Shown here piece by piece: positions 42,500 to 49,777 of a DNA stretch of 59,248 nucleotides. Numbering within the stretch: the stretch's first letter is position 1; the number at the start of each line of letters is the position of its first letter. The position numbers and the translations under genes were made by a program. The stretch is from Eubacteriales bacterium (GTDB lineage Bacteria > Bacillota > Clostridia > Oscillospirales > CAG-272). The stretch is taken from assembly GCA_045531795.1 (NCBI GenBank), contig JAZSET010000084.1:1-59248 (forward strand), in the 5' to 3' direction. The notes beneath the pieces are model-generated. The model made no database searches. It was not told the origin of the DNA and worked only from the letters and a program-made list of their open reading frames with translations.

Positions 42500-43771
42500 A
42501 TGGCAAATTGTTTTTACAGCGCAGATATACTTCTGCCGAAATTCAGAGAAGACAAGAAAAAAATGAATAAGTGGGCAACAATCGCCTGCGACCAGTATAC
42601 AAGTGAGAGGGAATATTGGAACGAGACAGAGAGAATTGTAGGTGACGAAGCCTCTGCACTCAGAGTAACTCTTCCCGAAATTTATCTTGAAGACGGAGAT
42701 ACCGCGAAGCGGATAGGCAAAATAAATGCCACAATGAAGGACTATACAAAAGATGTGCTTGAATGCTTTGAGGACACACTTATATACCTTGAAAGAAAAC
42801 TTGCAAACGGCAGTGTACGACACGGACTTGTGGGTAAAATTGACCTTGAAGAATACGACTATAATAAGGGTGCCGAGACATTGGTGCGAGCGACAGAGGG
42901 AACAGTTTTATCCCGGATTCCCCCGAGAGTTGAGATAAGAAGAGGGGCAGAAATCGAGCTTCCCCACGTTATGATGCTTATAGATGACAGAGAAAACAGT
43001 GTAATTGAGCCGCTTGAAGCGAAAAAAGCGGAGCTTAAACCTGCATATTCCTTTGAACTTATGCAAAATGGCGGCGAGGCTGCCGGATATTTTGTTGACG
43101 CTGAGAGCAAAGCGCAGATAAACAAAGCCCTTGAAAAGCTTTGTGACATAGATGTCTATAATGAAAAGTACGGTGTAAACGAAAAAAAGCCTATGCTTTT
43201 TGCAGTTGGCGACGGCAATCACTCGCTCGCAAGTGCAAAGGCACTGTATGAAGAAATAAAAACAAAGCTTGGTGATGCGGCAAAAAATCACCCTGCAAGA
43301 TATGCTCTTGTGGAAATCGTGAATATTCACGATAAAGCCCTCGAGTTTGAGCCTATTTACAGAGTGGTGTTTGACACAGATACAGAAAAGCTTCTTGAAG
43401 AGCTTAAGAAATACGCCGAAGAAAACAAGGGCGGCAATAATAGCTTTGAGATTGAGTGTGTCGGTAAAAACGCAAGTGAAAAAGTAGTAATCAAACATAC
43501 AAAAGAAGAGCTTGCGGTCGGAGCGCTTCAGAATTTCATTGATGAATACCTGAAAGAAAACAAAGGATATGTAGACTACATTCACGGAATAGAGTCAACA
43601 CAGAATCTTGCAGACAATGATAATGCTATCGGATTCCTCTTTGAGGGAATGGGTAAAAGCGACCTTTTTAAGAGTGTAATTATCGGCGGTTCTCTGCCGA
43701 GAAAGACTTTCTCAATGGGTCACGCATACGACAAGAGGTATTATCTCGAAGCAAGGAAAATAGTTGAATAA
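42500..43771 (+). CDS. DUF1015 family protein
   Basis: IACDQYTS, ATEGTV, HVMMLIDD, FAVGDGNHSLA, LPRKTFSMG. Confidence 0.75.
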   Translation: MANCFYSADILLPKFREDKKKMNKWATIACDQYTSEREYWNETERIVGDEASALRVTLPEIYLEDGDTAKRIGKINATMKDYTKDVLECFEDTLIYLERKLANGSVRHGLVGKIDLEEYDYNKGAETLVRATEGTVLSRIPPRVEIRRGAEIELPHVMMLIDDRENSVIEPLEAKKAELKPAYSFELMQNGGEAAGYFVDAESKAQINKALEKLCDIDVYNEKYGVNEKKPMLFAVGDGNHSLASAKALYEEIKTKLGDAAKNHPARYALVEIVNIHDKALEFEPIYRVVFDTDTEKLLEELKKYAEENKGGNNSFEIECVGKNASEKVVIKHTKEELAVGALQNFIDEYLKENKGYVDYIHGIESTQNLADNDNAIGFLFEGMGKSDLFKSVIIGGSLPRKTFSMGHAYDKRYYLEARKIVE

Positions 43772-43776
43772 AAAAC

Positions 43777-43810
43777 AAACCGGTGATTTGCTTTTGCAAG
43801 TCACCGGTTT
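43777..43810. terminator. Bidirectional terminator
   Basis: AAACCGGTGATTTGC-TTTT-GCAAGTCACCGGTTT between convergent genes. Confidence 0.8.
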
Positions 43811-43816
43811 ATTTAG

Positions 43817-44521
43817 TTATTTCTTTAATCGTTTATCTGATTTTGTTGCAAGATAAGTACCAAGACTCTGGAATATCTGTACGAGGACAATGAGGAGTAT
43901 TACCGCAACAAGCATTATAAGATACTTGTATCTGTAATATCCGTAGTTTATCGCAATTTTACCAAGACCGCCGCCACCGATTATACCACTCATTGCACTG
44001 TAACCGAGGATGGTCGTAATTGCAATTGTTGCATTCGATATAAGTGAGGGCACACTCTCGGGTATCATTACCTTGGTGATTATTTGTAATGGTGTTGCGC
44101 CCATACTTTGTGCCGCTTCAATTATGTTGGGGTTAACTTCTCTGAGGCTTCCCTCGACAAGTCTTGCTATAAATGGAAAAGCGGCTATAACAAGTGGTAC
44201 GATTGATGCTACTGTTCCGACAGTTGTCCCGACAATAAGTCTTGACAGAGGAAAAACAAGAATCATCAGTATCAAAAACGGTATTGAACGCAGAAGATTT
44301 ATTACTACATTAAGTATCTGCATAAGCCAGGCGGGGAGCGGCAAAACGCCGTTTTTCTCACCTGCAACAAGAAGCACGCCTAAAGGCAGTCCTAAAATTA
44401 TAGCAAATGCAGTTGAAACAACCGTGACATAAAATGTTTCCCATATTGCAAGAGGAAATTCGTTGATAATAATTCTGATAGCTTCATTTACAGCATCAGA
44501 AGAAAAAATCTTATCAAGCAT
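43817..44521 (-). CDS. metI: Methionine ABC transporter permease
   Basis: LRSIPFLILM, ARLVEGSL, IIEAAQSMGA (EAA), GGGGLGKIAINYGY. ATG at 44521 overlaps the metN stop. Confidence 0.93.
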   Translation of the reverse strand: MLDKIFSSDAVNEAIRIIINEFPLAIWETFYVTVVSTAFAIILGLPLGVLLVAGEKNGVLPLPAWLMQILNVVINLLRSIPFLILMILVFPLSRLIVGTTVGTVASIVPLVIAAFPFIARLVEGSLREVNPNIIEAAQSMGATPLQIITKVMIPESVPSLISNATIAITTILGYSAMSGIIGGGGLGKIAINYGYYRYKYLIMLVAVILLIVLVQIFQSLGTYLATKSDKRLKK

Positions 44522-45518
44522 TTGATGACACCTCCTCAACATATACATCTTCTGTTTTTGACAGGTATTCAGTCGCTTTGCGCGCGCTTTCCGTGTCAGG
44601 CACACCAAGAAGCATATTGCCGTACACCTTGTCTCCGATACATCTTGTGGACGCGGCAAGAATGTTTGCCGTGATATTTATATCAACTGCCATCTGTGTT
44701 ATCATAGGAGTTTTGGTTGCCAAAGCTCCGTTGAATACAACACGGAGTTTCTTTTCATCTGTGTCAACTATAATTTCGTCAGCACCGTCGGGGAACACAA
44801 GCTTTCTTGCAGCTGATGACTTGGGCTTTGAGAATACAGTCGCAACAGGACCCTCTTCTACCACAACACCGCCGTCAAGAATTGCAACTCTGTTGCAGAT
44901 TTCCTCAACAACACTCATCTGATGCGTTATGACAATAACGGTTATACCGAGTCTTTGATTGATTTCACGGACAAGGGAAAGAATTGAATGAGTTGTGTTG
45001 GGGTCAAGTGCGCTTGTTGCTTCGTCGCAAAGCAGAATTTCAGGGTTTGTCGCAAGAGCACGGGCTATTGCTATACGCTGTTGCTGACCGCCGGAAAGCT
45101 GTGCAGGATATGCGTTTGCTTTGTCGGGAAGACCAACAATTTCAAGAAGCTCAAGAGCTTTATTTCTGGCGTCAGCTTTCGGTACACCTGCAAGTTCAAG
45201 CGGGAAGCAAATATTTTTAAGACAGGTTCTCTGCATCAGGAGGTTGAACCCCTGGAAAATCATTGTAACCTTTCGTCTGACCTTTATAAGCTCGCTTTCT
45301 GAAAGAGCCCCGATGTCTGTTCCGTCTATAAGTACTTTTCCCTCTGTCGGGCGTTCAAGCATATTGATACACCGTACAAGTGTGCTTTTGCCGGCACCGC
45401 TCATACCGATAATGCCGTATATATCACCGTTATTTATAGTCAGTGAGACATTTTTCAGTGCGTGTACCTCACCGTCAGAAACCGAAAAGGATTTCGATAA
45501 ATTCTTTATTTCAATCAT
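44514..45518 (-). CDS. metN: Methionine ABC transporter ATP-binding protein
   Basis: GMSGAGKSTLVRCIN, LSGGQQQR, LLCDEATSALDP, and a C-terminal NIL-like domain. Confidence 0.94.
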   Translation of the reverse strand: MIEIKNLSKSFSVSDGEVHALKNVSLTINNGDIYGIIGMSGAGKSTLVRCINMLERPTEGKVLIDGTDIGALSESELIKVRRKVTMIFQGFNLLMQRTCLKNICFPLELAGVPKADARNKALELLEIVGLPDKANAYPAQLSGGQQQRIAIARALATNPEILLCDEATSALDPNTTHSILSLVREINQRLGITVIVITHQMSVVEEICNRVAILDGGVVVEEGPVATVFSKPKSSAARKLVFPDGADEIIVDTDEKKLRVVFNGALATKTPMITQMAVDINITANILAASTRCIGDKVYGNMLLGVPDTESARKATEYLSKTEDVYVEEVSSNA

Positions 45519-45544
45519 TGATATAAACCGTTCCTTATAAAGTG

Positions 45545-45573
45545 CGTTACCGCAGACAGATTCTGCGGTAACG
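45545..45573 (-). terminator. Intercistronic hairpin between metQ and metN
   Basis: Perfect 12-bp stem CGTTACCGCAGA-N5-TCTGCGGTAACG with only a weak T tail. Confidence 0.6.
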
Positions 45574-45596
45574 TCTTTTATTACTTTGCTGTAAAA

Positions 45597-46451
45597 TTAT
45601 TTGAGAGCATCAAGAGTTGCCTGCTTACCGCCGTAAAGTCCGAGGGGCTCAACGTGGATAGCAGATACAGATACAACATGTGTGCCGTTCTGTGCATTGA
45701 AGTCGTCAAGATAAGGTACATGCTGGAAGTAGTTAGCATCAACCTCGCCGCTTTCAACTACATTGTTAGGCTGAACATAGTCTGTAAATTCAATAACTTC
45801 AAGAGTAATGTTCTTTTCTGCAAGGATATCCTTTGCAAGAGCAAGGATTTCAGCGTGAGGAGCAGGGGAAGCTGCAATCTTGATGGTTTCGCCTGCAAGA
45901 GCATCATAATTTACATCAGCTGCGTATCCGTTACCGGGATTTTCAACAACGCTTACAACTGCACCGTTGTATGTATCGGTGATGTACTTAGCAACTGCTT
46001 CACTTTCAAGGGCTGCAACGAGAGCCTTGATTTTTGCTGCTTTTTCATTTCCCTCTTTAACAGCAAGGATATTGCTGTATGCAGAAGCGGCACCTTCCAT
46101 AACAAGGGCCTTTTCCATGGGATTGATATCGGCAGCTATTGCGTAGTTTGAGTTGATAACTGCGTAGTCAACATCCTGAAGCACATTGGGGAGCTGAGCA
46201 GCTTCTACTTCCTTGAAAGAAATGTTGTGGGGATTTTTTTCAATGTCAAGGATGGTTGCTGTAATGCCAACGCCTTCCTTGAGCGCGATGAAGCCCTGGT
46301 CTTCAAGAAGTAAAAGAGCGCGGGCTTCGTTTGTTGTGTCATTGGGTACTGCGATTGTAATGCCGTCAGTCTCTTTAGCACAAGAGGACATTACAACAAC
46401 GGATGAAAGCAATAAAAGTGTTGCGAGGATAAGTGAAAGAATCTTTTTCAT
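45597..46451 (-). CDS. metQ: MetQ/NlpA methionine-binding lipoprotein, circularly permuted
   Basis: Lipobox Cys24. IAVPNDTTNEARALLLL..AAQLP..AVINSNYA occurs BEFORE PHAEIL..EFTDYVQPN..DANYFQHVPYL..HVEPLGLY. Confidence 0.92.
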   Translation of the reverse strand: MKKILSLILATLLLLSSVVVMSSCAKETDGITIAVPNDTTNEARALLLLEDQGFIALKEGVGITATILDIEKNPHNISFKEVEAAQLPNVLQDVDYAVINSNYAIAADINPMEKALVMEGAASAYSNILAVKEGNEKAAKIKALVAALESEAVAKYITDTYNGAVVSVVENPGNGYAADVNYDALAGETIKIAASPAPHAEILALAKDILAEKNITLEVIEFTDYVQPNNVVESGEVDANYFQHVPYLDDFNAQNGTHVVSVSAIHVEPLGLYGGKQATLDALK

Positions 46452-46513
46452 AGTTTTTCTCCTTTATGTATAAAAAATATAATAAAACAATTTCCGCTTT
46501 TGTGTATGGATAG

Positions 46514-46542
46514 ATTATATCACCATAATACTGATGTGTCAA
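46514..46542 (-). promoter_or_regulatory. SigA-type extended -10 promoter for metQ-metN-metI
   Basis: Minus strand TTGACA-17 bp-TATAAT with TGn. Confidence 0.75.
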
Positions 46543-46556
46543 GTTTTTTAACAAAT

Positions 46557-47030
46557 TTACTCGTTATCAAAGTCGGGGATTACCGAGGAATTGCTCTTGA
46601 CAGATGTCAAAACAAAGTGAGTGCGCGTTGACTGTACTCCCTCAACGCTCTTGACTTTTCTGTGGAGCTTTTCAAGACTTACGGAGGAGTCGGTAAAGAT
46701 TTTCAACATAAAATCGTACTCACCGGTAAGATAATAGCAGGATTGTATGCTTTCGGTTTCCCTTACCATTTCGGCAAAAACATCAAAATATTTGGGGTGC
46801 TCAAGGCTTACCTCCATAAGGGCGATAAGGTCATTACCGAGATTTTTTTGATTTAACGTAATAGTATATTTTTCGATGATACCGTTTGTTTCCAGCTTCT
46901 TTATTCTCTCAATTACTGCAGATACCGACAAATTGATTCTTTTACTTATGTCTGAAGCCTTCATTCTTGCGTTTTCTTTAAGGCAGGTAAGAATCTCAAG
47001 GTCGAGTTTGTCAAGAGGATGTTTTTCCAT
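46557..47030 (-). CDS. Lrp/AsnC family transcriptional regulator
   Basis: LDKLDLEIL..LKENAR, SAVIERIKKLE, CYYLTGEYDFMLKI. Confidence 0.93.
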   Translation of the reverse strand: MEKHPLDKLDLEILTCLKENARMKASDISKRINLSVSAVIERIKKLETNGIIEKYTITLNQKNLGNDLIALMEVSLEHPKYFDVFAEMVRETESIQSCYYLTGEYDFMLKIFTDSSVSLEKLHRKVKSVEGVQSTRTHFVLTSVKSNSSVIPDFDNE

Positions 47031-49063: not shown

Positions 49064-49777
49064 TTATTCTTTAAGGAGATGCTCATCAAGTTTCAGCTTC
49101 TTTCTGAGCTTGTCCATTCGTTCGTCAAGCTCGGAACTTAATTTTGCACAGTATAAAAGCTCGCTTGACATATCATCCGTAAAGCAGTCATCTTTTTTAT
49201 ATCTGAGCTGATGCTCAAGGCTTGCCCAGACATCCATTGCGATTGTACGAAGCTGCACTTCGACTTTCATAATGCGCTTTTCGTGCGACAGAAATATCGG
49301 TACACCTACAATGAGATGGAGACTTCGGTATCCGTTTGGTTTGGGATGCTTTATGTAGTCCTTTCTTTCAATAAGGGTTATGTCGTCCTGAGCGAGAAGC
49401 GCGTCGCACAGGGTGTAAACATCCTCGGGGAATGAGCAGATTACCCTGATGCCTGCCACGTCGTTGAGATTTTCTTCAATCGAGGCAAGTGTAAAGGGAA
49501 ATCCGCGACGCTCAAGTTTTTCTCGCATGCTGAACATATCCTTTATTCTACTTGTCATTCCATTTATGGGGTTGCGGTCAAATCGGAGAGAAAACTCCTC
49601 ATTAAGCACATTGAATTTAGTTTCAACCTCCATCAGTGCACAGCGGTAATATGCTATAAGCTTTTTGAATTTGTTCATACCAAGCTCTGCTTTTACAAAG
49701 TCCTCTTCTCTCATGACCGATGCAATGTGAGGGGGCAGGACAGATTCTCTTTTTGTGGTATTTGCCACTTTTTTCAC
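49064..49777 (-). CDS. Small alarmone synthetase (RelQ/RelP-like GTP pyrophosphokinase)
   Basis: SRIK, NDVAGIRVIC, KDYIKHPKPNGYRSLHLIV, EVQLRTIAMDVWASLEHQLRYK. Confidence 0.92.
   Translation of the reverse strand: MKKVANTTKRESVLPPHIASVMREEDFVKAELGMNKFKKLIAYYRCALMEVETKFNVLNEEFSLRFDRNPINGMTSRIKDMFSMREKLERRGFPFTLASIEENLNDVAGIRVICSFPEDVYTLCDALLAQDDITLIERKDYIKHPKPNGYRSLHLIVGVPIFLSHEKRIMKVEVQLRTIAMDVWASLEHQLRYKKDDCFTDDMSSELLYCAKLSSELDERMDKLRKKLKLDEHLLKE

Follow-up and report, generated by a model that had tools for sequence, protein, structure and literature searches.

A natural circular permutation of the MetQ binding lipoprotein that is widespread among Clostridia

We describe a metQ gene whose two halves stand in swapped order. 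It occupies 45597..46451 on the minus strand of contig JAZSET010000084.1 from a Eubacteriales bacterium (GenBank assembly GCA_045531795.1), of which the whole 59,248-nucleotide stretch was analysed and is called the window below, and it encodes a protein of 284 amino acids followed by a stop codon. Canonical MetQ consists of an N module followed by a C module (NC order); in the window protein the C module comes first (CN order). As judged from its sequence, the product is very probably a functional, lipid-anchored, methionine-binding MetQ that feeds the downstream transporter MetN2-MetI2, and one member of a clade of permuted proteins that most likely arose by tandem duplication and loss of the outer half-copies.

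The order of the parts was read from the open reading frame (ORF), Pfam matches and structure-chain alignments, all on the minus strand. The translation starts with MKKILSLILATLLLLSSVVVMSSC24, a signal peptide and lipobox (aa 1-24, ...VMSSC24, 46380..46451) read from the sequence; Pfam LPAM_1 matches it weakly (E 0.46), and Cys24, the predicted lipidation site, is at least 90% conserved in an alignment of 71 sequences. A tether of four residues only (aa 25-28, 46368-46379) separates Cys24 from the fold. The C module (aa 29-169, 45945..46367) corresponds to positions 95-234 of the PF03180 profile and holds N41, R44, N100 and N127. It is followed by an 18-residue linker (aa 170-187, ENPGNGYAADVNYDALAG, 45891..45944) that joins the old C-terminus to the old N-terminus, and by the N module (aa 188-284, profile 1-95, 45600..45890), which holds Y225, F242, H244 and Y247 and ends in ...TLDALK. 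An earlier reading of the DNA letters alone (the sequence-only reading) had proposed just such a gene, with MetQ blocks in C-then-N order and the linker at nt 45891-45944, and its coordinates proved exact.

PF03180 (Lipoprotein_9, MetQ/NlpA) matches the protein with 272.9 bits, compared with a gathering cut-off of 27. The match is non-colinear: aa 28-167 align to profile positions 95-234 and aa ~190-284 (nt 45600-45884) to positions 1-95, so that a colinear match across the whole profile (positions 1-236) is lacking. When aligned separately, the two blocks thus fall in the swapped order that the sequence-only reading had predicted. The best solved relative, 4ib2 from Ruminococcus gnavus, gives the same picture, with query residues 187-283 aligned to chain residues 10-106 and query residues 29-166 to chain residues 108-249; 4k3f and 1xs5, the next chains listed, are likewise matched in swapped order. 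Matches in two stretches were found for all 22 MetQ-family chains tabulated, the swapped order being read from the three printed alignments. Each block by itself has an E-value of 1e-32 or lower against solved MetQ chains, which excludes a chance match. Identity is ~54% per module to 4ib2 and 37% to E. coli MetQ.

The cut itself is clean. When the two blocks were rejoined in canonical order and aligned with E. coli MetQ (reference sequence from NC_000913), the junction was gapless, ...ATLDALK/DGITIAVPND in the window protein against ...KSLDELQ/DGSQVAVPND in E. coli. Residues that follow one another in the canonical chain have thus become the C- and N-termini; the cut lies between E. coli Q128 and D129, with zero residues lost. 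Residues 170-187 have no counterpart in canonical MetQ. The two-piece Pfam and structure matches, together with this gapless alignment, bear out the earlier proposal of a clean natural circular permutation.

Swapped modules could also be produced by mis-assembly of tandem metQ copies or by a gene call bridging adjacent metQ genes, and at least one such hybrid does occur among metagenome contigs of the family: L003 (4x coverage) matches one locus at 98% identity up to a point inside the gene and is nearly identical to another beyond it. The window gene, however, is one unbroken frame, with signal peptide and lipobox directly before the C module. In a different gut metagenome run, a Logan contig of 7,943 bp is colinear with the window over 45400-46650 (98.3% identity; 21 differences, 0 gaps and 0 joints), and the unitigs of a second run traverse the linker. 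All 9 genomes of the genus show the swapped profile order, as do three more of the family and one more of the order. A scan of species-representative genomes retrieved 80 loci colinear with the permuted protein over residues 1-284, including that of the cultured isolate Laedolimicola ammoniilytica, and the permuted order is also present in an actinomycete isolate genome. An artefact, and with it the assembly chimera that had been named as the finding that would overturn the proposal, is already refuted by these independent assemblies and retains a negligible likelihood.

Far from being rare, the permuted metQ of the window belongs to an old and widespread clade. The hosts of the 80 CN loci include Oscillospiraceae, Lachnospiraceae, Acutalibacteraceae, Anaerovoracaceae, Christensenellaceae, L. 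ammoniilytica and three Treponema metagenome-assembled genomes (MAGs). In an evenly drawn sample of 399 Clostridia species, 158 had a MetQ match and 43, across 15 family codes, had the CN type, nearly always as the sole MetQ match; the swapped protein is thus the usual form in about a tenth of the gut and rumen Clostridia species sampled. Gene order separates the two types cleanly. CN loci read metQ-metN-metI in 72 of 80 species, whereas all 20 canonical loci fetched read metN-metI-metQ, with metQ last. In a tree built on re-permuted sequences, the main CN clade received 99% support in the Shimodaira-Hasegawa-like approximate likelihood ratio test and was placed among clostridial canonical MetQs. 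The three Treponema MAGs, from ruminant guts (L066, L084 and L087), carry a clostridial-type permuted metQ-metN-metI at 61-65% identity, which suggests lateral transfer. In databases CN proteins are named either MetQ/NlpA family or 'hypothetical protein', the latter in MAG records that include the homologues P0025, P0026 and P0035; the swapped order probably depresses their NCBIfam scores below cut-off and so accounts for such labels in some MAG records.

We then asked what the conserved residues say of function. In Neisseria MetQ, methionine is contacted by R156, N213 and N238 on one domain and by Y81, F98, H100 and Y103 on the other (PMC6739813). Residues Y81, F98, H100, Y103, R156, N213 and N238 of N. 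meningitidis correspond to window Y225, F242, H244, Y247, R44, N100 and N127, respectively, and E. coli Y69, F86, H88, Y91, N141, R144, N202 and N229 to window Y225, F242, H244, Y247, N41, R44, N100 and N127; of the latter eight, N141 (window N41) is not among the contacts named in PMC6739813, and the other seven are. These seven are invariant in an alignment of 30 sequences. The larger set of 71 shows no variation at Y225, F242, H244, N41, R44 or N100, and conservation of at least 90% at Y247 and N127. The linker is conserved as well in the 71 sequences, with G175 and Y182 invariant and P172 and G187 conserved to at least 90%. The ratio of nonsynonymous to synonymous substitution rates (dN/dS) of the mature protein is 0.07-0.12 against six relatives (five from the same genus and one from the same family), and that of the linker is 0.08-0.16 in the three comparisons in which dS could be computed, though all these figures are rough, as dS is ~1 and near saturation.

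Structure prediction agrees with an intact fold. AlphaFold2 with the 71-sequence alignment returned a mean predicted local distance difference test score (pLDDT) of 91.4 and a predicted template-modelling score (pTM) of 0.82; four of the five models lay between 90.6 and 91.4 and the fifth at 87.1. The shallower 30-sequence alignment gave a pLDDT of only 80.9. The linker is predicted to be ordered, at pLDDT 97-98 with the 71 sequences. A Foldseek search with the model ranked MetQ structures first, aligning either ~141 columns at a root-mean-square deviation (rmsd) of 4-5 Å or ~85 columns at ~1 Å; partial coverage of this kind is expected of a sequential aligner facing a permuted two-lobed protein. 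MetQ and other type II binders were matched at probability 1.00. Full-length alignments to the other type II binders gave template-modelling (TM) scores of 0.3-0.4 and rmsd values of 8-10 Å, too weak to serve as proof of a lobe-swap symmetry.

These results bear on two further explanations. One is that the gene is the decaying remnant of a partial duplication that has lost expression or folding. Expression data come from one metatranscriptome, which held only short contigs of 90-95% identity, from relatives. A dN/dS of about 0.1 across both modules and the linker, a frame kept intact in dozens of species, a perfect consensus promoter and the confident fold prediction all stand against decay, which we regard as very improbable. 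The other is that the protein has changed its job, binding a ligand other than methionine or acting as a stand-alone surface lipoprotein, with the swapped order as a mark of neofunctionalisation. The different position of metQ in the operon (last in canonical clostridial loci, first in CN loci), which indicates distinct lineages, the unusually short tether and the existence of orphan relatives with C-N-C modules (CNC) and no metNI would fit such a change. On the other hand, the methionine-contact residues are all conserved, MetN retains its methionine-regulatory NIL domain, and genomes with the CN type generally have no second MetQ, so that MetNI would be left with no canonical partner. A new job thus appears unlikely, if less so than decay. 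The change in ligand range that the sequence-only reading had thought possible is not borne out, since the contact residues are all invariant or conserved to at least 90%. Its suggestion that the protein is functional, made from the intact partner genes, is strengthened by the conserved ligand residues, the dN/dS values, the synteny in 72 of 80 loci and the status of sole MetQ.

Class II binding proteins are built from two alpha/beta lobes connected by two crossing strands, with the ligand held between them; the lobes are pseudo-symmetric, and MetI is a homodimer. On this topology the permuted chain would begin, after the lipobox, at the strand ITIAVPNDTTNEAR (...AVPND), in the lobe that grips the amino and carboxylate groups through N41, R44, N100 and N127. 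It would pass to the other lobe at the ...YSNILAV... strand, continue through two helices and the ordered 18-residue linker, form the lobe that packs the thioether (Y225, F242, H244 and Y247), return at ...HVEP/LGLYG and terminate in a short helix, ...TLDALK, at the place of ...SLDELQ in canonical MetQ. Both hinge crossings would be retained in this arrangement, leaving the Venus-flytrap closure unchanged. The lipid anchor would be relocated to the opposite lobe, some four residues from the fold, and the swap may be tolerated if the pseudo-symmetric lobes dock on the homodimeric MetI2 in nearly equivalent geometry.

A shift of the anchor to the other lobe had already been proposed from the DNA letters, and we infer the same, since the strand after the lipobox carries R44, the equivalent of Neisseria R156, and the domain of R156 lies opposite the Y/F/H/Y lobe (PMC6739813), the lobe that canonical MetQ places after its anchor. 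Tethers have a median length of 4 aa in CN proteins, compared with 15 aa in canonical MetQs, the CN sample being redundant. Because the MetQ lipid anchor matters for the stimulation of MetNI (PMC8416018), the shift is unlikely to be neutral in detail.

Several points weigh against the reading of the window gene as a functional MetQ permuted by duplication. Besides the near-saturated dS, the NCBIfam MetQ models score below their cut-offs (NF008285, 165.4 against 374; TIGR00363, 159.9 against 228.85), which is the expected effect of the swapped order. The hinge positions and the placement of the anchor relative to MetI are inferred from class II topology and the literature. Finally, a full tandem ancestor was not found inside the main CN clade.

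To trace the origin of the permutation, 372 homologues were classed by separate N- and C-module profiles. They comprised 174 CN, 108 NC, 30 NCN, 27 CNC and 2 NCNC proteins, plus fragments, so that the search for homologues, longer duplicated intermediates included, yielded both the CN clade and partly or wholly doubled forms. The NCNC proteins are in-frame fusions outside the CN clade: P0228 (554 aa) consists of two ~95% identical repeats and was found on nine contigs of up to 140 kb, and P0253/P0402 (528/536 aa) comes from a Clostridiales MAG. A 402-aa NCN lineage comprises 16 distinct sequences, whose median identity is 95% and whose differences are scattered along the protein. At L009:6001-7209 (ENA ERZ1303476 NODE_850, 24 kb) its gene stands exactly between two metN-metI pairs, in the order metN-metI-[NCN]-metN-metI-Cys/Met enzyme-HTS, as if a metQ-last and a metQ-first operon had been fused. 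CNC proteins of 427-441 aa are encoded by orphan genes without metNI (L007:6001-7326, and L097 and L101:6001-7284), one of which has identical neighbours (dnaG-sigA-cupin) in two samples. All doubled-module copies keep the ligand motifs in the seven NCN and CNC examples checked, as do both C copies of the orphan CNC proteins.

We considered the 1.5-copy forms, NCN and CNC, as ancient intermediates and rejected this as a general reading. They are numerous in raw metagenome contigs and none was found among the 399 sampled Clostridia species; the identity of their CN-type modules to living CN genes is 80-100% in most cases and ~65% for the C module of the 402-aa NCN lineage, and the additional module resembles the canonical type. 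We read most 1.5-copy forms as probable later recombinants between CN and NC genes, with assembly chimeras possibly among them, and do not take them for remnants of the founding permutation. Contig L003 (ENA ERZ827140 NODE_5711) is a case in point: over bases 1-1459 it matches the CN operon locus L004 at 98% identity, and from there on the CNC locus L007 at ~99%. Strain recombination or chimeric assembly would explain this hybrid (P0018/L003), which calls for caution with every 1.5-copy form reported from metagenomes. P0239 (296 aa, NCBI, from a single 1.2-kb record) has NC order and groups inside the CN clade, and its end retains a linker of the CN type, ...SPTPDGLDSTVDYDALSGAQK; it is an apparent reversion via an NCN form, known from that one record. 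An apparent read-through homology beyond the stop codon of G047 was also followed up, and no C-module remnant was found there. As a separate observation, two lipoproteins, P0167 (656 aa) and P0244 (553 aa), fuse PF00497 (family-3 polar amino-acid binding) to MetQ, the MetQ part of P0167 being N-C-N.

The permutation most likely goes back to a metQ gene that was duplicated in tandem and in frame and then lost its outer half-copies. The origin by duplication and trimming named in the sequence-only reading is thus plausible and better grounded now that NCNC, NCN and CNC forms and a second cut register are known, although the 1.5-copy forms themselves look like later recombinants.

The permutation has apparently occurred more than once. 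In the tree, CN proteins fall in three places: the main clade, P0245 and P0270. P0245 belongs to the actinomycete isolate Allonocardiopsis opalescens (WP_342755679.1; GCA_003002095.1, L134:5001-5894) and is also present in an independent Logan assembly. Its gene is the last of a metN-metI-metQ operon, its cut lies at profile position 84/87, about 10 positions earlier than the cut at 95 in the clostridial clade, and its linker looks unrelated to the clostridial CN linker. It is the sole permuted copy among 31 related genomes, the other 30 being canonical, with metN 61-66%, metI 69-73% and metQ modules 53-68% identical to the A. opalescens counterparts. All this would be expected if the permutation happened in situ and separately from the clostridial event. 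Independent origins cannot be argued from phylogeny: the approximately unbiased (AU) test on 233 columns did not reject a single CN clade (p 0.53), and the tree-based argument was dropped. What supports an independent origin is gene order, cut site, linker and orthologous synteny. The second outlier in the tree, P0270, is from a MAG and likewise has metQ last and a different linker.

A second register was found within the clostridial proteins. A cluster of 17 proteins (P0229, P0389; 284 aa) runs from ...VDANYFQH to ...PNTVVNDSK and has the usual NPTDGFD... linker of the clade; with this start and end, the cut lies in the middle of the N module. At least three independent assemblies from pig gut place such a gene in a metQ-metN-metI operon (L098 and L099, 5001-5855; L100, 1522-2376). 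The same surface loop appears to have been opened at least twice independently, in the clostridial clade and in A. opalescens, a second register (before ...VDANYFQH) has arisen inside the clostridial clade, and NCNC, NCN, CNC and an apparent linker-bearing revertant coexist. On these grounds MetQ/NlpA may be a natural hotspot of permutation with its duplication-and-trimming pathway still visible, in which permutation is tolerated, or perhaps favoured, through an anchor on a pseudo-symmetric lobe at MetI2. We put this forward tentatively, as a possibility a little short of an even chance.

The surroundings of the window gene are those of a complete operon. Upstream of metQ lies a predicted sigma-70-type promoter (46514..46542, minus strand), TTGACA-17-TATAAT with a TG extension, for which the consensus scan counted 12 of 12 matches. 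The 78-nt gap between metQ and metN contains a stem-loop (45544..45574, minus strand) with a 12-bp stem by RNA folding (13 pairs in the consensus scan), a folding energy of -22.4 kcal/mol and a z-score of -3.25; on the mRNA strand it has no U-run. It could act as an mRNA stabiliser or attenuator and may set the ratio of binding protein to transporter. Next come metN (44514..45518, minus strand; PF00005 and PF09383), an ABC (ATP-binding cassette) ATPase with a C-terminal NIL (C2) regulatory domain, and metI (43817..44521, minus strand; PF00528, BPD_transp_1), a permease gene whose start, M47 of a long ORF, overlaps the metN stop by 8 nt. A bidirectional intrinsic terminator (43777..43810, both strands) closes the operon, with a 15-bp stem followed by GUUUUUUAUU on the minus-strand RNA. 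The window metQ is the only PF03180 locus in the genome, which is 91% complete. An Rfam scan for a riboswitch or T-box upstream of metQ gave no credible match. The Lrp/AsnC gene upstream (46557-47030) was considered as a conserved regulator and discarded, as it adjoins the operon in one same-genus genome only. A small alarmone synthetase (RelA_SpoT domain only, 237 aa, 49064-49777, minus strand) lies 2.6 kb from the operon, and genes for a DUF1015 protein (42500-43771), a phosphoribosyltransferase and a CitMHS-family permease are also nearby. Neither the synthetase nor any of these showed a link to the permuted metQ.

MetNIQ is among the best-studied ABC importers. Full-text literature searches that combined MetQ or NlpA with permutation gave no relevant paper, and as far as found the permuted MetQ is undescribed in the literature while common in nature, probably an ordinary function in an unusual architecture. 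A widespread natural variant with its anchor on the opposite lobe, held by a four-residue tether, would offer a test of how tether geometry affects docking and transport. The family, with its NC, NCNC, NCN, CNC and CN forms and the second register, makes the duplication-and-deletion model testable with many real homologous genes, where otherwise a few textbook pairs serve. Since colinear profile models under-score CN proteins, methionine uptake is under-called in gut and rumen Clostridia. For biosensor design, the natural cut site and linker show where a type II binding protein can tolerate permutation.

Among known systems, canonical MetQ/NlpA (E. coli 4YAH, N. meningitidis 3IR1/6CVA and R. 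gnavus RUMGNA_00858 4IB2; PF03180) is homologous over the whole mature window protein. The two share the ligand-contact residues, the lipoprotein export signal and the partners MetN (NIL) and MetI. The window protein differs in its C-linker-N chain in place of N-C, in the extra 18-aa linker that is predicted to be ordered, in the anchor that would sit on the other lobe by a ~4-residue tether, in a gene that stands first and not last, and in scores below the NCBIfam MetQ cut-offs. It is probably best regarded as a MetQ homologue with the same job.

Permutation by duplication is a textbook process known from the DNA methyltransferases and from saposin and swaposin, in which a tandem duplication in frame is followed by loss of the outer parts. 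The route proposed for MetQ is the same. The MetQ family has NCNC, NCN and CNC forms and two registers side by side, but its partly duplicated forms mostly resemble later CN/NC recombinants.

The closest parallel in kind, and the one well-documented case of a permuted binding lipoprotein, is TpMglB-2 (Tp0684) of Treponema pallidum. This glucose-binding lipoprotein is circularly permuted and has been proposed as 'Type Ic / Cluster Bc'; its relatives occur in treponemes and Gram-positive gut commensals, and its authors suggested a link with membrane tethering (PMC4990184). Both are natural permutations of the binding lipoprotein of an ABC transporter, TpMglB-2 retains ligand binding (PMC4990184), and its host range is strikingly like that of CN MetQ, which is found in Clostridia and in the three Treponema MAGs. 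However, TpMglB-2 is a type I sugar binder and CN MetQ a type II amino-acid binder, the cut sites differ and the sequences are unrelated; the window protein shows no homology to MglB-type (type I) sugar binders, its significant family matches being to MetQ/NlpA only. TpMglB-2 has a crystal structure and binding data, whereas CN MetQ is known here from sequence and prediction. CN MetQ is thus an analogue in kind of TpMglB-2 and not a member of 'Type Ic'.

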